DNA of 64,000 bases, from positions 1 through 64,000 of IMG/VR virus record IMGVR_UViG_3300034198_006385; one strand, given 5' to 3'. The stretch is from a virus. Positions 21,073 to 62,510 of the stretch are shown here, piece by piece (position 1 is the stretch's first letter; the number at the start of each line of letters is the position of its first letter). The notes beneath the pieces were generated by a model. It was not told the origin of the DNA. It saw only the letters and a list, made by a program, of their open reading frames with translations, and ran no database searches. The position numbers were made by a program, and so were the translations under genes.

Positions 21073-21498
21073 ATGGCATATAAAGGTTTTTTTAAACCAA
21101 AGAACCCACAAAAATATAGGGGCGATGTAAACAACATAATTTATAGAAGTAGTTGGGAATTAAAATTATTGATGCGGGCGGATGCTGATAATAATATTTT
21201 ACAGTATTCATCTGAAGAATTTTTTATTCCTTATTACAATCCTCTAGATGATAAATGGCATCGGTATTTTCCTGATATGTGGATAAAAACTATTGATGGG
21301 AGAAATCTTATTTTAGAAATAAAACCATATAAACAAACAATACCTCCAAAAAAACAAACTAAAAGATATTTAATTGAAATGAAAACATATGTAATAAATA
21401 AACAAAAATGGGAGGCTGCCGAGAATTATTGTAAAAAACAAGGTTCTGGGTGGCATTTCTTAATATTAACAGAAAAAGAATTGGATATTAATTTCTAA
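21073..21498 (+). CDS. gp4: Head completion nuclease gp4
   Basis: KG.F.PKNP.KY.GD...I.YRSSWE, HRYFPD, EIKP, N..KW.AA. Confidence 0.95.
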   Translation: MAYKGFFKPKNPQKYRGDVNNIIYRSSWELKLLMRADADNNILQYSSEEFFIPYYNPLDDKWHRYFPDMWIKTIDGRNLILEIKPYKQTIPPKKQTKRYLIEMKTYVINKQKWEAAENYCKKQGSGWHFLILTEKELDINF

Positions 21499-22976: not shown

Positions 22977-24344
22977 ATGGTAGATGAAAATTCTAGAATA
23001 AATGAATTAAATAACTCAGTTAATAAAACTATTAATATATCAAAAATAGATAGTGTTATTGATTCAGAATTAACCAACAAAATTAATAATAATACTAAAG
23101 GTTTTATTGGTAATGTAAATAAAGAACTTGATATAAATTCCAGTATTAAACCAGTATCAAATATTGAACCATCAATTGATACCAAAATTATATCACCAGA
23201 AATTAAAAAACAAAAAGTAGCATCTTTTTTAAAAAATAAATTACCAGAAAAATTAAAAAGTATAGCTGGTAAATCTTTACCCGGCATTGGTGCTGTAGCT
23301 TCTGCTTATGGCGTTATTGATAAAATCAATGAAGGTGATATTCCAGGGGCAATTACACAAACAGCCGCAGGTATAAGTTCATTTATTCCCGGTAAAGGAA
23401 CGGTAGCATCTTATACATTACAGGGGGTATCTCTTGCCCGAGATTTTTATAAAGAAATATTCGATGAATATCCAGGCGAAGATAAAAATTTTGAAAAACA
23501 TGCAAAAATTATTGATGATACTATGAGAGAATATGGTTTACCCGAAGCTATTATTTCAACTATATCAAATGGAATTTCATATGCAAAAAGTGGTGAAACT
23601 TTTATAAATGATGCTTTTAGATCAAAAGAAAATTATACTCCAGAGGCATCAAAACAAACTATAGTAAATAATACTACAGAAAATAAACCAATGAGAGGAA
23701 AAACAAATAAAGGGGTTTCCCTCATAGAAGATTTTAAAGATACACAAAATAATAGTAATAATGAATTAAATAATTTATTAGAAATGAATAGAAATAAATT
23801 TGAACAAAATTCAAATTTAGACATTAATACTAATATATCTAATCAATTACAAGAAAATCCAAATATTACACCATCTATAATTAATGAATCACAAGTTCAA
23901 CCAAATATTAATACATCTGTAAATAATATGACACAGGTTAATTCAAATATTAATAAACAATTACAATCTGAATTAAATATAGATAGCACATTAAATAATA
24001 AAAACCAAATAATTAATACTGAGTTAACACCAGATACACCATCAAATTTTTATTTAAAACTTGAAACACCATATATTAATAAATCATCCCCATCAACTAT
24101 AATATATCCGTATAACAATCAAACTAAATCTACTCAAATTAATAAAACAATTAAAAGAAATCAAAATGATGTCAAAAATATACAGACTAATAATTATAAC
24201 GAGCAACAAACTGCAAAAAATTTAAATAATGTATTTGTTTCAGAAAATTCTGTACCTATAACTCCAGAAAATCAACAATATCAATTTAATATGCCTGAAC
24301 CAAAAAATGTTCCAAATTCACCGGCTATTGGACCAATTAGATAA
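22977..24344 (+). CDS. Putative tape-measure/gp29-like protein
   Basis: KSLPGIG...EGDIPGA...FIPG.GT segment, low-complexity N/Q tail, position after gp26/gp51. Confidence 0.5.
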   Translation: MVDENSRINELNNSVNKTINISKIDSVIDSELTNKINNNTKGFIGNVNKELDINSSIKPVSNIEPSIDTKIISPEIKKQKVASFLKNKLPEKLKSIAGKSLPGIGAVASAYGVIDKINEGDIPGAITQTAAGISSFIPGKGTVASYTLQGVSLARDFYKEIFDEYPGEDKNFEKHAKIIDDTMREYGLPEAIISTISNGISYAKSGETFINDAFRSKENYTPEASKQTIVNNTTENKPMRGKTNKGVSLIEDFKDTQNNSNNELNNLLEMNRNKFEQNSNLDINTNISNQLQENPNITPSIINESQVQPNINTSVNNMTQVNSNINKQLQSELNIDSTLNNKNQIINTELTPDTPSNFYLKLETPYINKSSPSTIIYPYNNQTKSTQINKTIKRNQNDVKNIQTNNYNEQQTAKNLNNVFVSENSVPITPENQQYQFNMPEPKNVPNSPAIGPIR

Positions 24345-25176
24345 TATATTTTTGCATACTTTTTTCTATACCATAAAGATTAATATTTTTTAATGAATTA
24401 TCCATTAAAAATGTATTACATGTATAATTTTTATTAGGCGTTGATAATAATATTTCAAAATTTTCCGGTAAATTATGAATATAACAAAAATATTTAATAA
24501 ATTCACTAATTGTAAATGATTGAGAATATGCACAATTGATATCTGACGGATAATCAATCCAATTTTCTATAACATTTGAAATAATTTTACTTAAATCAAT
24601 TGCTGATATCCATGAAAATTCTCTATTATGAGAAATAATAAATTTTTTATTTTCTTTAATATAATTGCAATATTTTTTTAATAAACGAAAATCTGGTTCA
24701 TTTGAATCAAAACAACCAAATATTCTTAATGTTATTGCGTTTGGAATAAGGCGACAATAACGACTAATTATATTTTTTGCTAATCCATAACTTTCAGTTG
24801 GTAATCTTCTATCAATTTCATCTTCTTTCACATAATCAATATTAGTAGTAATATCCATTTCTGCACCACTACCAATATTTATTAATAGACCATAATGATT
24901 ATTCAAATTTGAAATATTTTGAAATATTTTTAGATTATTATGAAATTCATCTTTATTAAATTCACCAAGATTCTGTTTACCACCGGCAGTGGCACAAAGA
25001 ATAACAACATCAGGATTAATATTTTTAATTGTATGATAAACATTATCAAAATTAGTTAAATCACAAATATCTCTATGAATACCAAATTTATAACAATATG
25101 GTAATTGGTCCATCAATACTGAACCAAGAAATCCTTTTGATCCTAAAATAACAATTCTTTTATTTTTATAACTCAT
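24337..25176 (-). CDS. NAD-dependent epimerase/reductase (extended SDR) acting on nucleotide sugars
   Basis: GSKGFLG Rossmann motif, IGSGAE, YGLAK (YxxxK), LRIFGCF. Confidence 0.9.
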   Translation of the reverse strand: MSYKNKRIVILGSKGFLGSVLMDQLPYCYKFGIHRDICDLTNFDNVYHTIKNINPDVVILCATAGGKQNLGEFNKDEFHNNLKIFQNISNLNNHYGLLINIGSGAEMDITTNIDYVKEDEIDRRLPTESYGLAKNIISRYCRLIPNAITLRIFGCFDSNEPDFRLLKKYCNYIKENKKFIISHNREFSWISAIDLSKIISNVIENWIDYPSDINCAYSQSFTISEFIKYFCYIHNLPENFEILLSTPNKNYTCNTFLMDNSLKNINLYGIEKSMQKYII

Positions 25177-25182
25177 ATAGTA

Positions 25183-25938
25183 TTACTCTAATTCTTCTGA
25201 CGGTAAAAATGGATACATATCATCCAATCCCGCCTGTATTTTCTTACCATCCACTATTTTAAAAGATTGCATAGGTATAATTTCTTCATCTGGTTCACAA
25301 AATGCTTCAATAATCATACATTGTTTATTTTTTAATACATTACTAAAACATAAACTTTTTTCATTATATGTATTCGAATAGTAATCCCATAAATCAATAT
25401 ATGGAATGTCAAATCCATCAGCAATTTTACTCATATTAGGAATATGTACACCTGTATTTTTATCAACCCCATATATTCTATTATTATAAAAATTCTTTTG
25501 AGTATTTTTGATTGACATGTATCCATTATTATTTAATACTATAATTTTTATTGGTAAATTCATTCCTTTAATTGTAGATAATTCTTGAAGATTTGACATG
25601 AAAGACCCATCACCAACAATTACAATTACATCTTTGTTACTTTCAATTGCAACCCCAATTGATGCAGGAATTGCAAATCCCATATCTGCTTGCGATTGAC
25701 TAAAAATAAAACGTCTATCCATACTGGCATGAAGATTTACTGGACAAACATATGATGGAGACCCCGCATCTGTAACAACAATACTATCAGCCCACATAGT
25801 ATTGTTAATAAAATTAATTACATGGTAAATAGAAAAAACACCATTTTTTGGTTGACCCTTAGGTAGTCCAGTTACCCATTTATTTTTCCATGATAAACAT
25901 TTTAAAGCCCAATGACTATAAGGATCATCCCAACTCAT
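25183..25938 (-). CDS. ThDP-dependent enzyme (acetolactate synthase/YerE-like), C-terminal ThDP-binding domain
   Basis: DAGS, MGFAIPASIG, GDGSFM.N.QEL.T, LNNNGY.SI. Confidence 0.9.
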   Translation of the reverse strand: MSWDDPYSHWALKCLSWKNKWVTGLPKGQPKNGVFSIYHVINFINNTMWADSIVVTDAGSPSYVCPVNLHASMDRRFIFSQSQADMGFAIPASIGVAIESNKDVIVIVGDGSFMSNLQELSTIKGMNLPIKIIVLNNNGYMSIKNTQKNFYNNRIYGVDKNTGVHIPNMSKIADGFDIPYIDLWDYYSNTYNEKSLCFSNVLKNKQCMIIEAFCEPDEEIIPMQSFKIVDGKKIQAGLDDMYPFLPSEELE

Positions 25939-27023
25939 TATAATTTTCCTAATTTATATTGTGAAATTGCGTGAGTAAAAAATTCTCTCAAATCCATACG
26001 CAATCCTTTATTAAAAGAAACAATATTAGAATTTATATCTTGATTGCATGTTTTTAACAATTCGCTTTGTGAAATATCTACAATCATTTTATATGCATTT
26101 GGTGCAAAATTATTTTTATCATATCCAATATGACAAACTGTTAATGAACTACCAAGAACTAATAATGTATCAGATTTCATTAAGGCCATATTTCCTGCAC
26201 GAGAACCTTTAACTCCAATACACCCAATATTTAATGGATTTGCGTGATCTGTATAATCTCTAGCACCATAAGTTGATACAAAAGGAATTTTTGTCATTTC
26301 AATAAAACGAATAAATTGTTGAATTGTGTTAGATTGTGCAATACCATTACCAGCCAAAATCAATGGTTTATCTGCCTGAAATAGTTTATCAACCATAAAA
26401 TTTAAAGTAGTGAATCTAGTTAAATTATTTTCTTCATAATTAAATTTTAGTAATTTAAGAATAATTGGTTGTGTATATTGTTCATTTAATTCTGCAATTT
26501 GTACATCGGCAGGAATATCAATCCATGCTGGTCCCGGTCTACCATTTGTCATGGCATTAATTGCTGACATAAGAACAGAACGAATATTATTAGGATTATT
26601 TAGAAAATGTGTATATGTTGTATAATTTTTTACCATCGGAATTATATCATTTTCTTGAATGCCATATTTGCGTAATGCCCATTGGTTTTCGTTATTCATT
26701 TTATATGTTGTTTGATCGGAACGAACATTACCAGAAATAAATAATACAGGAACACCATCTTGCCATGCATCTAACAGAGGTGTCATGCAATTAGTTCCAC
26801 CGCAGCCAGTTGTTGGATTGACAATACTAAAGTTTCGACTATATTTTGCAGCACCAATGGCAGCATATCCAGCCGCTTGTTCATGATGAAAACATATGTA
26901 ATTGATATCTGGATTTCTGATAAAACCATCATTTAACCCTGATGCGCCACCACCAGTTAATCCATAAACATTTTTAATTCCTAGATTAACTAATTCCCGC
27001 GCAATATAATCGCAAACTCTCAT
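25938..27023 (-). CDS. ThDP-dependent enzyme (acetolactate synthase/YerE-like), N-terminal and central domains
   Basis: HHEQAA.YAA, TTG.GGTN, D.VP.LFISG, GRPGP.WIDIP.DVQ, G.RAGN. Confidence 0.9.
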   Translation of the reverse strand: MRVCDYIARELVNLGIKNVYGLTGGGASGLNDGFIRNPDINYICFHHEQAAGYAAIGAAKYSRNFSIVNPTTGCGGTNCMTPLLDAWQDGVPVLFISGNVRSDQTTYKMNNENQWALRKYGIQENDIIPMVKNYTTYTHFLNNPNNIRSVLMSAINAMTNGRPGPAWIDIPADVQIAELNEQYTQPIILKLLKFNYEENNLTRFTTLNFMVDKLFQADKPLILAGNGIAQSNTIQQFIRFIEMTKIPFVSTYGARDYTDHANPLNIGCIGVKGSRAGNMALMKSDTLLVLGSSLTVCHIGYDKNNFAPNAYKMIVDISQSELLKTCNQDINSNIVSFNKGLRMDLREFFTHAISQYKLGKL

Positions 27024-28354
27024 TCATATTTCCTCATAAATTTCTTGACCATATCATGAATATAAAATAATTGGTCAACTGTAATAGTTGGACTTGTGCC
27101 ATGAAAAAATGTTGACGTTGTTGTATATGTTGCATTTGGAAAATCTTTTTTTACATCATATGAGTGTTCAGATGCTAAATGAGAATATCCCGGTTGTAAT
27201 AAAATATTACCCGCAAAATATGGACGAGTTTGAATTTTACATTCCTCTAAAAAAGCAACAAATTCCTTACGAGTAAAAGGAGCATCCGGTTTAACTGTTA
27301 GAGGAAAAGCAAACCATGATGGATCAGATTTTGGTGTTGCTTTTGGAATTATGAAATATTTTTCATATGGGTCATATGTGACGCGAAGCATTTCATAATT
27401 ATGTTTGCGACGTTCAATGATATTTGGAATTTTTTTAATTTGTTGTAGACCAATAGATGCTTGTAATTCTATTGGTTTTAGATTGTAACCAATTTCACTA
27501 TACACATATTTGTGATCAAAAATTTCATTTGGTAATTCAGGAAGCCATGAACTAAATCGTTTACCACATGTGCCGCATGGAAGTTTATTAGCTTTCTCGC
27601 CTTGGCAATAACAAGCGCGGCCCCAATCCCGCAGAGAATGAATTACATCATTTAGGCCAATATCGTTAGTGGCAACAAAACCACCTTCACCTAACGAAAT
27701 GTGATGGGCTGGATAAAAACTGCAAGACGCCATTTTACCAAATGATCCTAATGGGTTTCCATCATATAAAGAACCAAGAGCATCACAACAATCCTCTAAA
27801 AGAATAAGATCATATTTCTCGCACAATTTCATCACTTTATCCATATTAGGTGGATTTCCTAATACGTGTGCGAAAGAGATTGCTTTAATATTACTCTTAG
27901 AACCATAACGCTGTAGAATATGTTCTACCTGTTTAAGATCAATATTGAGAGTATCTAATTCAATGTCAACAAATACTGGCTCAAATCCTAATTGAATAAT
28001 CGGATTGATAGTAGTTGGAAAACCAGCAACAGGTGTCAAAATTTTTGAACCCGGTGGTAGATCAAATGCGTTTTTACTGCGTAAAGCGGAATACATTAAT
28101 AGATTAGCGGAACTTCCACTATTAACTAAAGCACCAAATTTTTTACCAAGAAATTTACTAAATTGAGATTCGAAATGAATTGCATCTTTACCTAATCCCA
28201 TCCACCCATTTAGAAGTGTTTGGACGGCGGCAACAATTTCTTTTTCGTTATAATAGGTGCCAGCGTAATTTACTTGATCTACGCCAGCTATCCATTTCTT
28301 GGCTTTGTTTTTTTCAATAAGATATTTTTCAATTTCAGATAAAATATGTTCCAT
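27020..28354 (-). CDS. rfbH: CDP-4-keto-6-deoxyglucose 3-dehydrase (E1, DdhC/RfbH)
   Basis: VNSGSSANL, GFPTTINP, H.LGNP, EDCCDALG, SFYPAHH (His at the usual PLP-Lys position), DWGR.C.C...TC..RF Fe-S motif, DHKY.Y..IGYNLK. Confidence 0.92.
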   Translation of the reverse strand: MEHILSEIEKYLIEKNKAKKWIAGVDQVNYAGTYYNEKEIVAAVQTLLNGWMGLGKDAIHFESQFSKFLGKKFGALVNSGSSANLLMYSALRSKNAFDLPPGSKILTPVAGFPTTINPIIQLGFEPVFVDIELDTLNIDLKQVEHILQRYGSKSNIKAISFAHVLGNPPNMDKVMKLCEKYDLILLEDCCDALGSLYDGNPLGSFGKMASCSFYPAHHISLGEGGFVATNDIGLNDVIHSLRDWGRACYCQGEKANKLPCGTCGKRFSSWLPELPNEIFDHKYVYSEIGYNLKPIELQASIGLQQIKKIPNIIERRKHNYEMLRVTYDPYEKYFIIPKATPKSDPSWFAFPLTVKPDAPFTRKEFVAFLEECKIQTRPYFAGNILLQPGYSHLASEHSYDVKKDFPNATYTTTSTFFHGTSPTITVDQLFYIHDMVKKFMRKYE

Positions 28355-28695
28355 TACATTTCCTCATTAGAATCACCATTATAGTGATTAAATACATATT
28401 GCAATTCTTCATCCGAAATAACGGTAAGAATCCTAGAAACAATTTCGGATGCTTTCTTATGTCGATCTAATGTTTTTTGATATTTTTCAATGTCATCACA
28501 CATATATGAAATATAACTATCAACATCTTGTTCCAAAATAGTGGTATTTGGCAATTCTTTAAAAAAGAATCCATATTTACCGCTTTTCATAATACGAACG
28601 GTCAATTCATTATTTTTATTCAACTCCGACCGCTGACCAAGAGAAACTAATTCATTATAAAGTGTATTAAACACAGAAGCCTTTTCATTCATCAA
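28354..28695 (-). CDS. Hypothetical protein (true start possibly ATA at 28749)
   Basis: Stop overlaps the rfbH start; frame is open upstream to an SD-preceded ATA. Confidence 0.5.
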   Translation of the reverse strand: MMNEKASVFNTLYNELVSLGQRSELNKNNELTVRIMKSGKYGFFFKELPNTTILEQDVDSYISYMCDDIEKYQKTLDRHKKASEIVSRILTVISDEELQYVFNHYNGDSNEEM

Positions 28696-28756
28696 ATCAA
28701 TGTGCTTCTTACGAATTGCTTTACGGGAATCAATTACAAGTTTACTTATGATATAA

Positions 28757-29404
28757 TCACCTTACAATATTATTAACCATAATCTTTGCTTGCGCTATTT
28801 TTGATTCTAGCGTAATGCCGGGCCAATGTAAAGCCCAATCTCCGTGCTGCCATATCATACTATGCCCCAACAAATCAATATCTGTTGGAAGTTGATCATG
28901 ACGATAAATTTGTTTTTGTAAACTATTCATATATCGAGCAGGAACAATACCAAGAATATCTTTATATTGATTTAATGTGTCAATAACGACTTGTTGTTCT
29001 TTCCATGAATGATTCGTATAAATTGGTTCCAACGAAAGTAAGTCACAAATATATTGTTTGCATTCAGGAGAATTACGAAACAATGCATTACCAACATTTA
29101 TTCCATTAAAATACATTGACCAAATTACATGAACATTAGAATTAATTCTATCTTCTATCTTAATATTAAAATTGGTTACGATTGCATCACAATCAACAAT
29201 GAATAACCACTCACACTCAGGATATAATTCAAACACTTCTAAGACCAAATGAAGTCTGGCGAACCCCATATCAGGAGTCCGCCAGTTATTTTTCTTACAA
29301 TAGAAAGTATATCCGTGTTTATCGCAATATTCTTTCTTTGTTTGATCTGTTATAGTGGCTAAATCTTCATACCCTTCAGTATTAAATGATACCACTACAA
29401 ACAT
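28757..29404 (-). CDS. Glycosyltransferase, GT34/MNN10-like (GT-A)
   Basis: K.EYC.KHGY, EWLF.VDCDA (DxD), N.G....RNS, W.EQ, GDW..HW.G. Confidence 0.8.
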   Translation of the reverse strand: MFVVVSFNTEGYEDLATITDQTKKEYCDKHGYTFYCKKNNWRTPDMGFARLHLVLEVFELYPECEWLFIVDCDAIVTNFNIKIEDRINSNVHVIWSMYFNGINVGNALFRNSPECKQYICDLLSLEPIYTNHSWKEQQVVIDTLNQYKDILGIVPARYMNSLQKQIYRHDQLPTDIDLLGHSMIWQHGDWALHWPGITLESKIAQAKIMVNNIVR

Positions 29405-30357
29405 TATTTTCTCTTAGCCATTTTTTTAAAGAAACTCATTTCATTATCATCTTCTTCTTCGTCGTTATCATTATTCGATGATGAAGTATTTTCCTTTTCA
29501 TTATTTTCATCATCGTCATCGTCCCATGGAACTTGATTTACATTTTTATTAATGAGTTTATTAGTAGTTGTTTTTGGTGCATCAATATTAGATGATTTTT
29601 TAGGTTGAGATGTCCCAAGAACATATTCGAGGCGTTTCTTTAGTTCATCATATGATTTAAATTTTTCAGGAGCAATTTCTGATTGCAGAGAATGAGAGGA
29701 CTTCCAGATTTTTTCTAGAACATCATCATCATCAGAAATAGATGTAGGTGGTTTTACAAACACCGATTGATCGTAATTCCTATTACCTTCTACCCTACGA
29801 ATAATTAGACGAAAATTACACCCTTCCCACATATCAAAAACATTAATTGGTGCATCATCTTCAAATGTTGGATGAAGCATTTCATTAATTTTATCATAGA
29901 TTTTTTTACCAAATTTAAAACGAAATACTTTTCCGTTATTTTCTGGTGCGCCTTTATCATCAATAACAAGAATATTGGCAACATAATATAATTTACGTTT
30001 ACGATCTTTAGCTAATTGAATATTTTCTTTATCACCAGATTCATAAAGTTGATTATTCATTTCAACAACAGGATCATCTTGACCTAATGTTGTTAAACAT
30101 TTTTCAATATACCAACGCTTTTTATCGCCATGAACAACATTAAAACCATGTTCCCAATAACGGATTAGGGCATCTTCTTCATTTGGGGGAGGAGGAAGAA
30201 ATCTAATAATTGCCAGACCATTTCCAGCTTTATCTACTGTTGGTTGCCAATAAGTATCATCATCATAATTTTGTTTTGTATTTTGTGCTTGCAATTGTTT
30301 TGCAAGATTTTCTGCTTGTGCTTTACGATTATTTTTTAGTTCGGCAAAATTTACCAT
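29404..30357 (-). CDS. gp32: Single-stranded DNA-binding protein gp32
   Basis: DKAGNG.A.IRFLP, WYIE.C.TT.G, KRK..Y..NI.V..D, FGKKI..KI, NYD.S.F, acidic tail. Confidence 0.97.
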   Translation of the reverse strand: MVNFAELKNNRKAQAENLAKQLQAQNTKQNYDDDTYWQPTVDKAGNGLAIIRFLPPPPNEEDALIRYWEHGFNVVHGDKKRWYIEKCLTTLGQDDPVVEMNNQLYESGDKENIQLAKDRKRKLYYVANILVIDDKGAPENNGKVFRFKFGKKIYDKINEMLHPTFEDDAPINVFDMWEGCNFRLIIRRVEGNRNYDQSVFVKPPTSISDDDDVLEKIWKSSHSLQSEIAPEKFKSYDELKKRLEYVLGTSQPKKSSNIDAPKTTTNKLINKNVNQVPWDDDDDENNEKENTSSSNNDNDEEEDDNEMSFFKKMAKRK

Positions 30358-34917: not shown

Positions 34918-36219
34918 ATGGCACAATTTCGTAAAGATACACATCAATATTTAAGTGATGGAAAAACTATATTTGAAGTAATGATGTTAGCCGATCAATA
35001 TGGAAATTTAGTTGGTCCCGCTAATCCATCAGGAACTTCTGTAGATGCATTTGGGCGGAATAGAATGTCTACCCCCTTAACTTTATTTGATTCTTCTTAT
35101 AGATATAGAGATAATAATCTTTGGTATACATCTAATACTGCTGGTACAACATATACATTTAATGCTAATTCTGGGTTAATGGATTTAACTCTTGATACTA
35201 CATCAAATTCTGAAATAATTAGAGAAACTACAAAAGTATTTTCATATCAACCGGGAAAATCATTATTAGTATTAAATACTTTTGTTTTTAATCCAACTAA
35301 AACTAATTTAAGACAAAGAGTTGGATATTTTGGTGCCCAAAATGGAATCTTTTTAGAACAAGATAATACAAATATTTATTTTGTTCAACGATCTTTTGTT
35401 AGTGGTAGTATAGTTGATACTAAAATATCTCAATCAAATTGGAATATTGATCCTTTAAATGGAACAGGACCATCATTATTAACATTAGATTTATCTAAAG
35501 CACAAATTTTTTGGATTGATTTAGAATGGCTTGGTGTTGGAAGTGTTAGATGTGGTTTTGTTATAGATGGTAAAATTATTCACTGCCATTCTTTTCATCA
35601 TGCCAATTTACTTACACAAACATATATTACTACTGCAAGTTTACCATTAAGATATGAAATAAAAAATACAGGAACAGTTACTAGTAATAGTAATTTAAAA
35701 CAAATTTGTTCAACTGTAATTTCAGAGGGTGGATATGAATTAAGAGGCGCGCAGCAATCTATTGGAACCGCAATAACATCCGCAAAAGCATTAGCAACTG
35801 CTGGAACATATTATCCTGTAGTATCTATTAGATTAAAATCGACACATCTTGATGGTATAGTTATATTATCTGCTATTTCTTTGCAGGGATTAGGTAATAA
35901 TACAAATTATAATTGGAGAGTTATTGCCGATGGGACAGTTACTACTGCGGCATGGACTGATGCTGGTTCGACATCTTCAGTTGAATATACATTAAGTGGA
36001 ACAGCTATTTCTGGTGGAAGAACCCTTGCTAGTGGGTATTTTAGTTCATCAACACAAAGTTCAATGCCTGTTGAAATTTTAAAAGAAGCATTATTTAAAT
36101 TTCAATTAGAAAGAAATAGTTTAACATCAACACCAGTAACATTAAGTTTAGCTGTAGCCGCTAGTGTTGATACATCTACTGTATTTGGCTCAATAGATTG
36201 GGAAGAAGTTTCAAGATAA
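34918..36219 (+). CDS. Putative virion structural protein
   Basis: DAFGR.R.S.P.TLFDS, YQPGKS, EWLGVG.VR.GF, LP.RYEI, C.TVISEGG; late promoter upstream. Confidence 0.65.
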   Translation: MAQFRKDTHQYLSDGKTIFEVMMLADQYGNLVGPANPSGTSVDAFGRNRMSTPLTLFDSSYRYRDNNLWYTSNTAGTTYTFNANSGLMDLTLDTTSNSEIIRETTKVFSYQPGKSLLVLNTFVFNPTKTNLRQRVGYFGAQNGIFLEQDNTNIYFVQRSFVSGSIVDTKISQSNWNIDPLNGTGPSLLTLDLSKAQIFWIDLEWLGVGSVRCGFVIDGKIIHCHSFHHANLLTQTYITTASLPLRYEIKNTGTVTSNSNLKQICSTVISEGGYELRGAQQSIGTAITSAKALATAGTYYPVVSIRLKSTHLDGIVILSAISLQGLGNNTNYNWRVIADGTVTTAAWTDAGSTSSVEYTLSGTAISGGRTLASGYFSSSTQSSMPVEILKEALFKFQLERNSLTSTPVTLSLAVAASVDTSTVFGSIDWEEVSR

Positions 36220-43791: not shown

Positions 43792-45537
43792 ATGAGTATT
43801 GAATCTTACGAAGATTATGTAAGTGTTAAAATAATCGGAATGACTGAATCTTTTATTAAAGATAATGTAACTGGCCAAAAATTGACACCACAAGAATTTG
43901 TGGCCTATTGTGCTAGGGTTAGTAATCCATCAAATCAGATGAATAATGACACATCAGAAAATCTTCTTATGTATTGTATTCGTAATAAACATTGGTCGAT
44001 TTTTGAAATGGTCAATATTGCCTGTGAAATTAAAACAACGCGCGATATTTCCCATCAAGCAATTCGTCACCGAAGCCAAAATTTCCAAGAATTTTGTGTT
44101 TCTGGTGACACAAAAATTAGATTTATATTACCAAGTGTTTTAAAACGGGACGGAAATTCATCTTACACAAAAGAAATTGAACATTTATACAATAATTGGA
44201 TTAAAAATTCCCATACACAAAATGTAATTAAAAATATGCATATTCGAGTATATGATGAAGTAAATAAATGTTTTACTACTTCACATATTTCTAATATATT
44301 TAAAACAGGTGTTAAACCAGTATTTAAAGTTACTTTAACTAACGAAAAAACAATTAAATGCACGAAAGAAGAGAGATTTTTCACAAAAAATGGATTTCTT
44401 CCTTTAGAAGAAATTGTTGGTCTAACTAACAATAAAAATATGTGGTCTATGACTAATAATTGTGAAGTTGCAACCAACGGTATTCCTGTCTATCAATCAT
44501 ACGAATGGTTAAAAGAAGCTAAAGAAGAATCTATTATTAAAGGCTTTGGGGTTCCATATATTGCCGAAAAAGCGGGGGTGTCATATCACACAATTAGAAA
44601 ATGGTTAAAAATTAATAAACTTCAATTTACAAAAAAAGAAGTTGCACAATACACCCAAATTTGGAATAAAGGGAAATTCGGATATTCTCTGCCCAAACAT
44701 AAACAAGAAACTATTGAAAAAATGCGTAAAAGTGCTAAACGCGGTGCCGACTCCAATTTATGGAAAGGCGGTGTTGAGCGGTCAGAACGTTTAAAAATTG
44801 CTGATTGGTGTAATGCAAATAGATCATCATTTTTAATAAAATATAATTATACATGTAATAAATGTAATTCTAATAAAAAATTACATCTTCATCATATAAA
44901 ACCCGTATATTCACACTCAGAATTAGCATATGATTTCGACAATATTGAAGTATTATGTAAAAATTGTCATTATGATGTTCATAATTTAAACGGAGATTAT
45001 AAAATCAATAAATCAAAAAAATCTAAATTAGGTATTGAATGGACAACATTTAAGCATATTGAATATATTGGCGAAGAAATGACTTATGATTTAGAAGTTG
45101 AACACAATTCACATAATTATGTTGCAAATAATATTTTAGTTCATAATTCTCAAAGATATGCCGACCCAACACAACTAGATAGTGGATTTGTTGTCAGAGA
45201 AGCAAGGCTTCAAGATAAAAAAAATCGTCAAAATAGTATTGATGTTGAAGATGATAAATTACAAGAAGAATGGATTTCTCGCCAATTAAAACAAATTGAT
45301 CTTGCAAAAGAAAATTATGATTGGGCAGTTGCAAATGGTATTGCAAAAGAACAAGCAAGAGTTGTGCTTCCTGAAGGATTAACCAAAACAACCTATTACA
45401 TTAATGGAACTTTACGTTCCTTTATTCATTACATTCAAGTTCGCGCTGATCCGTCAACACAAAAGGAACACAGAATTATTGCAAATGCTCTACTACAAAA
45501 TTTGCAACAATATTTCCCATTTTTAAATCGGGTCTAA
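43792..45537 (+). CDS. thyX: Flavin-dependent thymidylate synthase ThyX containing an intein
   Basis: AYCARVSNP, HWS.FEM, RHRS.NFQEF | SQRY, G.AKEQAR.VLP, TQKEH. Confidence 0.95.
   Translation: MSIESYEDYVSVKIIGMTESFIKDNVTGQKLTPQEFVAYCARVSNPSNQMNNDTSENLLMYCIRNKHWSIFEMVNIACEIKTTRDISHQAIRHRSQNFQEFCVSGDTKIRFILPSVLKRDGNSSYTKEIEHLYNNWIKNSHTQNVIKNMHIRVYDEVNKCFTTSHISNIFKTGVKPVFKVTLTNEKTIKCTKEERFFTKNGFLPLEEIVGLTNNKNMWSMTNNCEVATNGIPVYQSYEWLKEAKEESIIKGFGVPYIAEKAGVSYHTIRKWLKINKLQFTKKEVAQYTQIWNKGKFGYSLPKHKQETIEKMRKSAKRGADSNLWKGGVERSERLKIADWCNANRSSFLIKYNYTCNKCNSNKKLHLHHIKPVYSHSELAYDFDNIEVLCKNCHYDVHNLNGDYKINKSKKSKLGIEWTTFKHIEYIGEEMTYDLEVEHNSHNYVANNILVHNSQRYADPTQLDSGFVVREARLQDKKNRQNSIDVEDDKLQEEWISRQLKQIDLAKENYDWAVANGIAKEQARVVLPEGLTKTTYYINGTLRSFIHYIQVRADPSTQKEHRIIANALLQNLQQYFPFLNRV
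44095..45147 (+). mobile_element. Intein (351 aa) with HNH homing endonuclease
   Basis: Starts CVSGDT, ends YDLEV...HNYVANNILVHN with +1 Ser; internal HTH and CxxC...HHI...N...LCxxCH...H. Confidence 0.93.
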
Positions 45538-49367: not shown

Positions 49368-50357
49368 ATGTTTGATGAAAATGAGATTTCCATTAAAGCA
49401 AATGGCGGAACTGAATTAGCCAAAAGACATTTAGGGCAATTACTTCCCCAAGATTTACAAGATAATTTTCAAATTATTTGTTCGCGAGTAAGAGACTTAC
49501 AAGAAGATAAAATTCGCATCTTCTGGTGCCACGATTTATTTGCTGATCCTGAATGTAAAAAATTAGCAGAACAATCTTTTCGCCAAAAATTTCATAAAAT
49601 TGTATATGTAAGTAATTGGCAATATGATATGTTTAGAAAAGGATTAAATCTTCCTTATACTGAAAAAGATATTGTTATTGAAAATGGAATTGAGCCTATG
49701 CAATATATTCCAAATAAATCTAATGACGTAATTAATTTAGTTTATGCATCTACCCCACAAAGGGGATTAGGTATTTTAGTTCCTGTATTTGAAGCACTAT
49801 ACAATCATAGAAAAGATATTCATCTTCATGTATTTTCTAGTTTTAAAATTTATGGCTGGGATGATGCGGATAAACAATTTAATGAATTATTTGAGCGGTG
49901 TAAAGCCCATCCAGCTATTACATATCACGGCTATCAGGATTACGCTACAGTGAGGCAGCAAGTCAGTCAGAGCCATATTCTGGCCTACCCTAGCATCTGG
50001 GAGGAAACATCCTGTAGAGTGCTTATAGAGGCAATGAGCGCGGGACTATTATGCGTTCATCCTAACTATGGCGCATTACCCGATACATCAGGTGGATTGA
50101 CAATTATGTATCAAGGAGATGAAGATTTAAATCTTCATGCACAAATTTTTGCTAATACTTTAAATCAAGCAATTGATAAAGCAAAAAATATAGATATGGA
50201 AAATTATTCAAATCTTTTAAAGCATTATACTGATATGAGATTTGGTATTAATAAAATTTCTAAACAGTGGGAATTTTTGCTGAATGATTTACTAGATCAA
50301 TATTCTACTATTGAAAGTAGAAAACTTAATAAAACTATTTTAACATTTAAATTTTAA
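49368..50357 (+). CDS. Glycosyltransferase, GT-B/GT4-like
   Basis: GGTE, W.HD, VS.WQ, Y.STP.RGL, YPS.W.ETSC...IEAMSAG. Confidence 0.88.
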   Translation: MFDENEISIKANGGTELAKRHLGQLLPQDLQDNFQIICSRVRDLQEDKIRIFWCHDLFADPECKKLAEQSFRQKFHKIVYVSNWQYDMFRKGLNLPYTEKDIVIENGIEPMQYIPNKSNDVINLVYASTPQRGLGILVPVFEALYNHRKDIHLHVFSSFKIYGWDDADKQFNELFERCKAHPAITYHGYQDYATVRQQVSQSHILAYPSIWEETSCRVLIEAMSAGLLCVHPNYGALPDTSGGLTIMYQGDEDLNLHAQIFANTLNQAIDKAKNIDMENYSNLLKHYTDMRFGINKISKQWEFLLNDLLDQYSTIESRKLNKTILTFKF

Positions 50358-53701: not shown

Positions 53702-54076
53702 TTAAAAATTTGGGGCGCGGCGCTGAATGAAATTTGATTGATAATTGGTGAAATTATAGAATCGTTTCACACAGGCAATCGCAACATCTACATCATACGG
53801 CTTACAAGAGAAAATGTCAATATATCCAGAGCCATCAATGTCAACAAAATGTGCGGTGATATTTGACGTTTCAATTAATTGCACTAAACTATAACCAGCT
53901 TTATCGGGATCGTGTGTGGCAAAATGTTTAATTGTTGGTTCGCCATATGCAACCATATCAATTTCTTCAATTAATACTTTAAGAAAATTTTTGTGATTTT
54001 CAACGTCTTTAATTTTATCCATATCACATCCACAAACATCAAGTAGTAGATGATACCCCCAATAATTATACGACAT
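53702..54076 (-). CDS. AdoMet decarboxylase-family pyruvoyl enzyme, divergent paralogue
   Basis: WG.HL.LD, I.M...G.P, G.SL.QLIETS.I..HF, D.FSCK. Confidence 0.85.
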   Translation of the reverse strand: MSYNYWGYHLLLDVCGCDMDKIKDVENHKNFLKVLIEEIDMVAYGEPTIKHFATHDPDKAGYSLVQLIETSNITAHFVDIDGSGYIDIFSCKPYDVDVAIACVKRFYNFTNYQSNFIQRRAPNF

Positions 54077-54079
54077 AAC

Positions 54080-54424
54080 TTATCCTCTGATTTCTAGTTT
54101 AATTTTGCTGGTCTTTGGTTGAAAATAATTTAGTAATATATCCATCATATCTTCAGGATTGCAATTCCCACACATGAAGGCATCAATCGCACAATACCCT
54201 ACTTCCGGCCAAGAGTGAAGAGAAAGGTGACTCTCGGCTAGAATAATTACGCCGGTAACTCCGTATTCATCACCAAAATGATGCATGTGACTAAAGATAA
54301 CAGTGGCGCCACAATGTAATGCAGCGCCTTTAAGTAAATCTTCAATTTCAATAGGGTTGTTTAATCTATTGGATGGACAGCCACAAAAATCAACTAATAA
54401 ATGTTTCCCACCTGCTGGAACCAT
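54080..54424 (-). CDS. speD: S-adenosylmethionine decarboxylase proenzyme
   Basis: GKHL.VD..GC, GVTG..IL.ESH.S.H.WPE.GY.AID.F.CG. Confidence 0.92.
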   Translation of the reverse strand: MVPAGGKHLLVDFCGCPSNRLNNPIEIEDLLKGAALHCGATVIFSHMHHFGDEYGVTGVIILAESHLSLHSWPEVGYCAIDAFMCGNCNPEDMMDILLNYFQPKTSKIKLEIRG

Positions 54425-59138: not shown

Positions 59139-59294
59139 TTAATCTTCTTCGTGTTGTTGCATTAATTCTTGGGCTGCTTCAAATCCTTCCCAATTATCAA
59201 CACCAACTTCTACTAGACAATTAAGAAAAATTGAATCATTAAGTAGTTCGTTGTATTCTTCTAGGGTGATAGTGATTGTTGGTTTTTCTGTCAT
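59139..59294 (-). CDS. Small acidic protein with GVDNW.G motif (51 aa, not in the ORF track)
   Basis: MTEKPTITITLEEYNELLNDSIFLNCLVEVGVDNWEGFEAAQELMQQHEED fills the gap between neighbours. Confidence 0.7.
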   Translation of the reverse strand: MTEKPTITITLEEYNELLNDSIFLNCLVEVGVDNWEGFEAAQELMQQHEED

Positions 59295-61670: not shown

Positions 61671-62510
61671 ATGCAAATTAATATTACCGTAGAAGAATTA
61701 CAAAAAAGAAAACTTTTCGTAGCAAGTCCGATGTATGCTGGGCAATGTGCAGGATTATATGCACGATCCATTGCAGATTTAACTGGATTATGTGTAAAAT
61801 ATGGCATTGAAATGAAATTTTATGCACTTTTCAATGAATCATTAATTACTAGGGCAAGAAATTATTGTGTAGATGAATTTCTTCGTAGTGATTATAGCCA
61901 TCTTTTATTTCTTGATAGTGATATTGGCTTTAATGCAAATGATGTAATTGCAATGCTTGCTCTACAATCAGATGAATCGGAATATGATATTCTTGCTGCC
62001 CCATATCCAAAAAAATGTATTAGTTGGGAAAAAATTAAACAAGCAGTAGATAAAGGTTTAGCAGATGACAATCCAGCAATTTTAGAAAAATTTGTTGGAG
62101 ATTATGTATTTAATCCTGTTGCTAATACAAATCAAATTGCATTAAATGAGCCAGCAGAAATTATGGAAACTGGAACTGGTTTTATGATGATTAAAAGAAA
62201 ATTATTTGCAGAATACGATATGGCGTATCCTCAATACAAATATAAACCAGATCATGTTCGTAGTGACCATTTTGATGGTAGTCGCGAAATTATGGCATAT
62301 TTTGATTGTATTATTGATCCAGATTCTAAACGCTATTTGTCAGAAGATTATATGTTTTGCCAAAATGTTCGCAAAATGGGTGGAAAAGTTTGGCTTTGCC
62401 CCTGGATTTCTACACAACATGTTGGTATGTATGTATTCGGCGGGTCTCTCGCTGATCTTGCATCAATTGGAGCGTCAGCAACCGTTGATATAGATAAAAT
62501 CAAAAAATAA
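61671..62510 (+). CDS. GT-A fold glycosyltransferase-like protein
   Basis: A.PMY.G.C, NESLITRARN, LF.DSDI (DxD), YPKK, GTGFM.I.R, RYLSEDY.FC. Confidence 0.75.
   Translation: MQINITVEELQKRKLFVASPMYAGQCAGLYARSIADLTGLCVKYGIEMKFYALFNESLITRARNYCVDEFLRSDYSHLLFLDSDIGFNANDVIAMLALQSDESEYDILAAPYPKKCISWEKIKQAVDKGLADDNPAILEKFVGDYVFNPVANTNQIALNEPAEIMETGTGFMMIKRKLFAEYDMAYPQYKYKPDHVRSDHFDGSREIMAYFDCIIDPDSKRYLSEDYMFCQNVRKMGGKVWLCPWISTQHVGMYVFGGSLADLASIGASATVDIDKIKK

Follow-up and report, generated by a model that had tools for sequence, protein, structure and literature searches.

Bacterial surface glycans are known to contain carbon-branched dideoxy sugars, among them yersiniose and erwiniose. In Yersinia pseudotuberculosis yersiniose A is made by DdhA-D together with YerE and YerF, and the biochemistry of the last two enzymes was reportedly described by Chen, Guo and Liu in 1998. 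Here we describe a gene cassette of an uncultured marine T4-like phage that is a viral variant of this known pathway type. It lies in the IMG/VR record IMGVR_UViG_3300034198_006385, and the window, meaning the whole stretch of DNA that was analysed, is the first 64 kb of this record, which is linear, 86,662 bases long and about 30% GC, with a CheckV completeness of about 51%. The cassette shares with the yersiniose A pathway an E1/DdhC-type dehydratase, followed by a thiamine diphosphate (ThDP) enzyme and then a reductase, and the same logic is predicted, with the 3-hydroxyl taken off, a carbon branch put on at C-4 and the branch reduced, as the pathway is outlined in a review (PMC12247030). 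In contrast to the Yersinia pathway, the ThDP enzyme of the phage consists of two polypeptides, DdhA, DdhB and DdhD were not found, and the carrier is a lytic T4-like phage. We propose, with moderate confidence, that the cassette makes a nucleoside diphosphate (NDP)-linked C-4 carbon-branched 3,6-dideoxyhexose, which is handed to an acceptor.

Several other described systems bear on this locus. For both halves of the window ThDP enzyme, JanthE (PDB 8RPH) ranked first or second among the solved relatives. Gene clusters of the JanthE/ErwE type are represented by the bacterial locus L127, which has the order of ddhD-like, ddhA-like, 4,6-dehydratase, RfbH, aldolase, ThDP enzyme and short-chain dehydrogenase/reductase (SDR) genes. 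The phage enzyme is only 31-40% identical to the bacterial fused enzymes, and the aldolases for long donors are not in the window. SpnQ of spinosyn biosynthesis is likewise an Fe-S, His-type 3-dehydratase without a dedicated E3, the likeness being a functional analogy only; it acts on a dTDP sugar and takes its electrons from general ferredoxin or flavodoxin reductases, according to PMC8987622. The window dehydratase differs in passing the RfbH (CDP-type) equivalog, and it was set against SpnQ by description, not by sequence. For the glycosyltransferase (GT) of the cassette, the counterpart is the N-terminal GT of PBCV-1 A64R (2P6W), a viral GT-A domain of about 210 amino acids (aa), whose PDB title states that it glycosylates the major capsid protein; it is 17% identical and comes from a eukaryotic giant virus, and its donor and acceptor are not transferable to the phage GT. 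The T4-like Synechococcus phage S-H68 carries an RfbH homologue (40% identity, annotated as CDP-4-dehydro-6-deoxy-D-glucose 3-dehydratase) among 4,6-dehydratase, epimerase and GT genes, in an island without an annotated ThDP enzyme. Surveys of marine viromes place ascC/ddhC/rfbH among viral auxiliary genes (PMC10653327), and in a 2025 review on ThDP enzymes that accept ketones, viruses are named as unexplored (PMC12247030). No paper on a phage YerE-like enzyme was found in the literature searched.

The cassette consists of six co-directional minus-strand open reading frames (ORFs) directly behind the gp32 gene:

29404-30357, minus strand: gp32, the single-stranded DNA-binding protein (PF08804, 8.6e-40); its stop overlaps the first cassette gene
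28757-29404, minus strand: GT34-like transferase, 215 aa (PF05637, 1.3e-19; 71.4 bits, the cut-off being 23)
28354-28695, minus strand: small orphan ORF, 113 aa, no family at cut-off
27020-28354, minus strand: RfbH/DdhC 3-dehydratase, 444 aa (PF01041, 7.3e-73; NCBIfam RfbH)
25938-27023, minus strand: ThDP enzyme subunit 1, 361 aa, with the PYR (N-terminal) domain and the middle domain (PF02776, 6.1e-27; PF00205, 1.9e-25)
25183-25938, minus strand: ThDP enzyme subunit 2, the ThDP/Mg-binding PP domain, 251 aa (PF02775, 1.3e-29)
24337-25176, minus strand: RmlD-like SDR, 279 aa (PF01370, 2.9e-11; PF04321, 2.6e-09)

At the gene junctions there is either an overlap of 1-4 nt or a spacing of 6 nt, apart from a single gap of 61 nt ahead of the small ORF. 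No membrane-like segment was seen by hydropathy in any of the cassette proteins, which are therefore predicted to be soluble. A first-pass annotation of this DNA had described the gene run behind gp32, and every gene it named was present at the above positions on the minus strand. It had, however, taken the ThDP enzyme as one gene, which is in fact two ORFs.

The ThDP enzyme carries all three domains (PYR, middle and PP) across its two ORFs, and both the catalytic Glu48 of subunit 1 and the GDG...NN motif of subunit 2 were present in 79 of 79 alignment rows. Against the NCBIfam model for acetolactate synthase (acetohydroxyacid synthase, AHAS; TIGR00118) the two halves scored 164.4 and 91.2 bits, with a cut-off of 538.35. 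The best PDB relatives of the N-terminal half were 5AHK (2.3e-42), which we take to be PpYerE, a literature search for 5AHK having given no confirmation, and JanthE (8RPH, 5e-40), compared with 8.8e-32 for E. coli AHAS I. For the C-terminal half the difference was larger, 4.8e-32 for JanthE against 4.9e-14 for AHAS I. The literature gives 8RPH as JanthE (PMC12188165) and JanthE as a YerE-like enzyme (PMC12247030; PMC12188165).

A tree of 69 rows and 330 columns, covering the N-terminal and middle domains, was built by a quick IQ-TREE search with SH-aLRT support only. A 15-row AHAS clade, in which the label was verified by NCBIfam for eight rows, had a support of 100, and the window enzyme fell on the other side of the tree. 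It belonged to a 29-row clade, also with a support of 100, made up of 21 viral split enzymes, five metagenomic fused enzymes, two split enzymes from metagenome-assembled genomes (MAGs) and the window enzyme itself. This clade was nested with bacterial fused enzymes (support 96), and the branch leading to the viral clade was long, at 1.53 changes per column. Since the window enzyme is outside the AHAS clade, the phylogeny suggested in the first-pass annotation as a check does not place it with IlvB, but beside bacterial enzymes of ddhDABC-type clusters.

The gene context of these bacterial enzymes was examined in a search of the N-terminal half against 401 Pseudomonadota genomes, of which 124 had a match at E <=1e-30. 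About 22 fused bacterial proteins of 569-735 aa stood out with values of 1e-42 to 1e-71 and 31-40% identity, against about 1e-31 to 1e-35 for the bulk. For 13 of the top 22 matches an RfbH homologue lay no more than 9 kb away, but for only one of the next 18. By NCBIfam the top 22 bacterial matches, as well as L144, L146 and L147, were below the AHAS cut-off (300-421 bits), and among the rows listed L143, L145 and L148-L153 were above the AHAS cut-offs. The order in L127 is an initiating transferase (Bac_transf), an E3-like reductase, a nucleotidyltransferase, a 4,6-dehydratase, RfbH and an HpcH aldolase, continuing with the ThDP enzyme, an SDR, an acetaldehyde dehydrogenase and a DmpG-type aldolase; the ThDP enzyme of this cluster had JanthE as its best relative (1e-108, against 3e-74 for AHAS I). 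Judged by its sequence relatives, the window enzyme is thus supported as a member of the YerE-like sugar-branching group and not as an acetolactate synthase, an identity rejected from the NCBIfam scores, the tree and the linkage to RfbH.

The division of the enzyme into two subunits is a natural feature. The junction reads TAATG (...AAA TTA TAA, with the ATG beginning at the last A). Of the 120 best-scoring homologues listed, 115 (the cluster of the query included) were 321-365 aa long with the N-terminal and middle domains only, and the other five were fused proteins of 586-607 aa. Subunit 1 tiles residues 1 to about 340 of the fused homologue P0081 and subunit 2 residues 340-578, with no gap or loss. 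The two-gene form was found in 78 of the related loci, a set of 84 comprising 82 viral loci (one contig twice) and two from MAGs, several of which are near-copies of one another. A sequencing artefact was considered as the origin of the split and rejected on the strength of these three observations.

Peptide-pattern scans, with patterns derived from one alignment of relatives, were used to see how the split enzyme is distributed. In IMG/VR, 126 contigs carried a relative, of which the best 80 were kept. The scan of one genome per species, for which the patterns were one residue longer, covered 185,579 species and gave two relatives, both on contigs of MAGs (Magnetovibrio and Hellea). In the other 400 Pseudomonadota genomes no match was better than 7e-71. 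Searching 50,697 phage records with the ThDP subunit by tblastn gave no close homologue, as none of the 38 matching records reached 60% identity, and in the 25 of these that were listed it was 21.6%-31.1%, several of the records being bacterial DNA; blastn of the cassette DNA against the same records gave zero matches. The split form marks a mostly viral clade.

The dehydratase scored 472.8 bits against the NCBIfam RfbH equivalog NF011936 (cut-off 423) and aligned to the Yersinia E1 (PDB 3BCX) over 424 residues with 1.4e-99, compared with 3.8e-55 for ColD. His217-His218 ('PAHHI') matches His220 of E1 in 3BCX, the His that replaces the Lys of aminotransferases, and Cys190, Cys248, Cys250 and Cys263 align with the [2Fe-2S] cysteines of E1 (EDCCD, CYC and a later C). 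A review (PMC8987622) describes the His and the four-cysteine [2Fe-2S] motif as typical of E1 and SpnQ, with ColD being without the cluster. The window protein was aligned with 82 homologues from related loci. In the resulting 83 rows the two His residues were kept in 83 and 82, Cys190 in 83, and Cys248, Cys250 and Cys263 in 73. The ten rows without the Cys motif are second DegT-type paralogues with 27-29% identity, and the catalytic His and all four Fe-S cysteines were retained in 73 of 73 primary viral orthologues. The DdhC/RfbH assignment in the first-pass annotation, made from the His in place of Lys and the Cys cluster, therefore extends by the equivalog score and the 3BCX alignment to the full E1/RfbH type. 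The protein is predicted from its sequence to be a pyridoxamine 5'-phosphate (PMP)- and [2Fe-2S]-dependent NDP-4-keto-6-deoxyhexose 3-dehydratase of the E1/DdhC/RfbH type.

The SDR, which had been named as the reductase of the run, does follow the ThDP enzyme with its catalytic motifs intact: G12/G15/G18 of GxxGxxG, conserved in 54 of 54 rows, and Y130/K134 of YxxxK, with the Tyr in 52 and the Lys in 50. Its best PDB match was dTDP-4-dehydrorhamnose reductase 9GPI (3.6e-4). A homologue was present in 53 of the 84 related loci, mostly directly behind subunit 2, and the protein is a candidate, by motif and position, for the reductase of the branch carbonyl in a YerF-like role.

Homologues of ThDP subunit 1 (ThN) and subunit 2 (ThC) were each found in 83 of the 84 loci, and those of RfbH and of the GT34-like protein in 79 and 16, respectively. 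The pairing of RfbH with the ThDP enzyme that had been noted in the window recurs in those 79 loci. The exact order gp32, GT34, RfbH, ThN, ThC, SDR was seen again in the viral locus L008, minus the small ORF. More generally, the conserved core consists of RfbH, an optional class I/II aminotransferase, ThN, ThC, the RmlD-like SDR and a 4,6-dehydratase (the last in 72 loci). The aminotransferase, of the aspartate type, lies between RfbH and the ThDP subunit in 37 of the 84 loci (for example L016:7845-9014) and not in the window; it might supply the 2-oxo acid donor. The core forms part of islands that also hold FkbM methyltransferases, GT10, GT2, GT1 and conserved unknowns and that often adjoin gp45, gp44, gp62, RegA or UvsW.

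The small ORF of the window is outside the conserved cassette. It has a single relative, at 53% identity, among 1.84 billion representatives, and no homologue in any of the 84 related loci. The possibility that it is a pathway component, for example a ferredoxin, was rejected, as it has one Cys, no family and one relative and is missing in syntenic loci.

Two further arrangements were observed in the related loci. In L031, L033, L035, L058 and L071-L082 the cassette is interleaved with genes for GTP cyclohydrolase I, PTPS (QueD-like) and an NAD-synthase/QueC-like protein, and also for a phosphoribosyltransferase and UDP-glucose dehydrogenase, as well as with a radical-SAM-like ORF that stays below the Pfam cut-off; by sequence, the interleaved genes resemble a 7-deazaguanine-type pathway. 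The 120-kb viral contig L004 has a split transketolase pair near its split YerE-like pair, and also an acylating acetaldehyde dehydrogenase, a PhyH dioxygenase and a 3,5-epimerase.

The linkage also bears on the alternative that the ThDP enzyme acts outside the sugar pathway, either as an AHAS-type auxiliary gene or on a non-sugar ketone. In this case the cassette would make only an unbranched 3,6-dideoxyhexose, and the SDR would be a 4-ketoreductase. The top NCBIfam names of the enzyme are all acetolactate synthase, JGI names the homologues likewise, and cultured cyanophages do have 3-dehydratase sugar islands without a ThDP enzyme. Nevertheless, the scores are far under every AHAS cut-off and the enzyme is outside the AHAS clade. 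No small regulatory subunit domain was found among the 124 ORFs of at least 50 aa that were called on the whole record, on every one of which Pfam was run, and in most of the 79 loci with both genes the ThDP enzyme stands beside RfbH or one aminotransferase gene apart. We therefore attach very little weight to this alternative.

The first-pass annotation had remarked that DdhA, DdhB and DdhD are missing from the window, and they are missing from the rest of the record too, by Pfam and six-frame family searches. The latter gave no NTP_transferase, and the sole SDR was that of the cassette; FAD_binding_6, NAD_binding_1 and Fer2 were each missing among the 124 ORFs. Five related phage records were examined for the same functions. 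Three of these are complete genomes, two with terminal repeats (202 kb and 337 kb) and one of 222 kb. NTP_transferase, NAD_binding_1 (PF00175) and Fer2 (PF00111) were found in none of the five. As there is no E3 (DdhD) or DdhA even in the complete relatives, the Yersinia scheme is not simply copied here. The 4,6-dehydratase of the relatives' cassettes is RmlB-like, with 299-307 bits against TIGR01181, below its cut-off of 365, and no CDP-glucose dehydratase model matched it at 1e-25. The CDP carrier assumed earlier does not follow from such an enzyme. Yersiniose as the product is likewise only presumed, as the donor need not be pyruvate. The lack of an E3 and the RmlB-like 4,6-dehydratases make SpnQ the closest mechanistic precedent, and by analogy with it the pathway looks SpnQ-like, with host reductases and possibly a dTDP carrier.

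The last enzyme to be considered is the GT that heads the cassette. An AlphaFold2 (AF2) model with a pLDDT of 95.6 matched GT-A folds, the best PDB fold being 2P6W of PBCV-1 (E 7.7e-14, TM 0.75/0.78), which was also the best PDB match by sequence (2e-4). In a viral structure library the top matches were proteins annotated as GT34, from uncultured tailed phages and from giant viruses. The protein carries the motif D71-C72-D73, and D73, T77 and N78 were invariant in 18 homologues. Together with PF05637, the model fold and the DxD motif show that the GT34-like gene named in the first-pass annotation codes for a genuine GT-A. The hydropathy maximum was 1.02 with no hydrophobic segment, so that this protein, too, is predicted to be soluble. 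Searches of the five related phage records and of the 124 ORFs of this record gave neither a polyprenol-phosphate transferase (PF02397/PF00953) nor Wzx (PF01943), and a ThyA-family base hydroxymethylase was likewise missing from both. Taken together, the soluble cassette proteins and the lack of a polyprenol transferase, Wzx and ThyA point to an acceptor in the cytoplasm other than a hydroxymethylated base. Analogy with the PBCV-1 enzyme favours a phage protein as the simplest acceptor.

DNA had been named among the possible targets in the first-pass annotation, that is, the sugar could be placed on phage DNA as a base hypermodification like the glucosylated hydroxymethylcytosine of T4. The glucosyltransferases of T4 are early genes, and the cassette lies directly behind gp59-gp32, with that of its relatives beside gp45/gp44/gp62; in some relatives, as mentioned above, it is interleaved with 7-deazaguanine-type genes. 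A DNA target nevertheless gained no support from the missing ThyA-family enzyme, the GT, which is of the GT-A type, is closest to an enzyme that glycosylates protein, and the many GTs and methyltransferases of the relatives (GT10, GT2, GT1, FkbM) are as expected for an oligosaccharide. We consider modification of DNA to be very improbable.

A scan for promoters and terminators between 23800 and 31300 gave sites no more frequently than in shuffled sequence. The late-promoter-like motif TATAAATA was strongly depleted, with five sites in the window against 28.3 expected from shuffles:

34843, 37145 and 38336, plus strand: TATAAATA sites
59296 and 60991, minus strand: TATAAATA sites

Each of the three plus-strand sites lies shortly before a plus-strand ORF (starts at 34918, 37164 and 38422), the placement expected for a T4-type late promoter.

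The position of the cassette with early/middle genes and not late ones is among the points that speak for another destination of the same sugar, namely that it remodels the host envelope (lipopolysaccharide, capsule or S-layer glycan) through host glycan assembly, possibly in the course of infection and for example to block superinfection. YerE-type sugars are components of bacterial surface glycans, according to PMC12247030, and the L127 cluster holds a Bac_transf initiating transferase. However, transfer to the host surface is unlikely in our view, given the missing polyprenol-phosphate transferases and Wzx, the predicted solubility of all cassette proteins and the resemblance of the GT to a capsid-glycosylating viral enzyme.

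The favoured reading is a branched sugar made by the cassette and passed to a cytoplasmic acceptor. The substrate, an NDP-4-keto-6-deoxyhexose, would be drawn from the host or formed by a 4,6-dehydratase encoded on the half of the genome that the record lacks. The E1/RfbH-type enzyme would strip the 3-hydroxyl using PMP and [2Fe-2S], with electrons possibly provided, as for SpnQ, by general host ferredoxin or flavodoxin reductases; a host supply is proposed because no E3 partner is encoded. The two-subunit YerE-like enzyme would then decarboxylate pyruvate or a longer 2-oxo acid and add the acyl group to the C-4 ketone, and the SDR would reduce the branch carbonyl. Finally, the GT34-like GT-A enzyme would move the sugar, carried on CDP or dTDP, to the acceptor, for which we lean towards a phage structural protein. 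In a wider form of this proposal, T4-like phages of aquatic bacteria would carry out an autonomous, giant-virus-style cytoplasmic glycosylation, placing a branched 3,6-dideoxy sugar on their own virion proteins by means of a two-subunit YerE-like carboligase specific to viruses and an E1 dehydratase that works independently of an E3. We put this forward tentatively, as a possibility with the balance still against it. With respect to the earlier interpretation, its core of E1/RfbH, YerE-like enzyme, SDR and GT is supported, and the one-gene ThDP enzyme, the Yersinia copy, the CDP carrier and the DNA target have to be given up or left aside.

A number of points weigh against a branched virion sugar. 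What the analysis establishes is the identity of the genes, their intact catalytic motifs, a ThDP enzyme outside AHAS and the conserved linkage; each chemical step, with substrate, donor, nucleotide carrier, product and acceptor, is inferred, the acceptor from a fold analogy at 17% identity. The carrier is ambiguous, as the dehydratase is like the CDP-type E1 and the 4,6-dehydratases of the relatives are RmlB-like. No 4,6-dehydratase, nucleotidyltransferase or E3 is present in the 86.6-kb record, about 51% complete. The tree comes from a quick search of two domains with SH-aLRT as its only support, and its anchor is JanthE and gene context, without a Y. pseudotuberculosis YerE/YerF sequence. 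Lastly, none of the five TATAAATA sites is near the cassette, which sits among early/middle replication genes (gp59, gp32), a setting that fits poorly with a purely late, virion-linked role.

The surrounding genes define the carrier. Pfam matches of the 124 ORFs gave a T4-like myovirus gene set, with replication and recombination genes (gp32, gp59, gp45, gp44, gp62, RegA, UvsX and a gp41-like helicase), baseplate genes (gp5, gp6, gp8, gp25 and gp53) and nucleotide-metabolism genes (ribonucleotide reductase and ThyX). The gp32 protein was at most 50% identical to that of any deposited phage, the nearest being those of Sinorhizobium phiM12-type phages, Pelagibacter phage HTVC008M and cyanophages. 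In the seawater metagenome of a second study, pieces of the cassette of 183-609 bases were found with 0-8 differences, and one 288-base piece with 22 differences; by the 31-letter rule none of these pieces spans the ThDP subunit junction. None of the sequencing runs listed for the cassette is of RNA. The carrier is an uncultured marine T4-like phage.

Two additional GTs had been proposed as possible members of the same system. The one at 49368-50357 (plus strand) is a real GT-B of the GT4-like type (PF13692, 5.1e-09; PF00534, 7.1e-09), but it lies directly after ribonucleotide reductase and dCMP deaminase, has no homologue in the 84 related loci and is tied to the cassette by nothing. The ORF at 61671 was rejected as a GT, its two matches of 19.4 and 18.2 bits both being sub-threshold.

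Other genes of the record are divided or unusual. An intein carrying an HNH endonuclease interrupts the ThyX gene (43792-45537, plus strand), a single ORF of 581 aa with Thy1, Intein_splicing and HNH. For the family-B DNA polymerase (gp43) there are two overlapping ORFs, L001:3817-5124 with the exonuclease and the start of the polymerase domain, and L001:5121-6470 with the remainder (G000 66817-69470). The UvsX/RecA-like ORF L001:6472-7380 ends in a HINT domain and the C-terminal domain of UvsX is in a separate ORF, L001:7492-8031 (G000 69472-71031), which may reflect an intein or a split recombinase. Tandem S-adenosylmethionine decarboxylase-like ORFs are at 53702-54076 and 54080-54424 (minus strand; PF02675, 1.9e-16 and 6.1e-32), a 51-aa ORF of the T7 gp5.9 RecBCD inhibitor family is at 59139-59294 (minus strand; PF25708, 9.8e-15), and an ORF with a TnsA-like endonuclease domain lies inside the baseplate module at 21073-21498 (plus strand; PF08722, 3.8e-18).

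To the carbon-branched dideoxy sugar pathways of bacteria, this analysis adds a conserved two-gene branching enzyme, found on at least 126 viral contigs against 2 of 185,579 species genomes, which travels with an E1-type dehydratase lacking its usual reductase partner. Dehydratase and branching enzyme together form the conserved core of larger glycan islands in T4-like phages. For enzymology, the locus offers a compact, naturally split carboligase as a test object, and for phage biology a specific gene set that may glycosylate virions or host surfaces in abundant aquatic phages. Should the glycosylation of virion proteins prove true, viruses would have their own lineage of sugar-branching enzymes, and phages a new class of surface chemistry, which could affect adsorption or the recognition of these phages by hosts and grazers.

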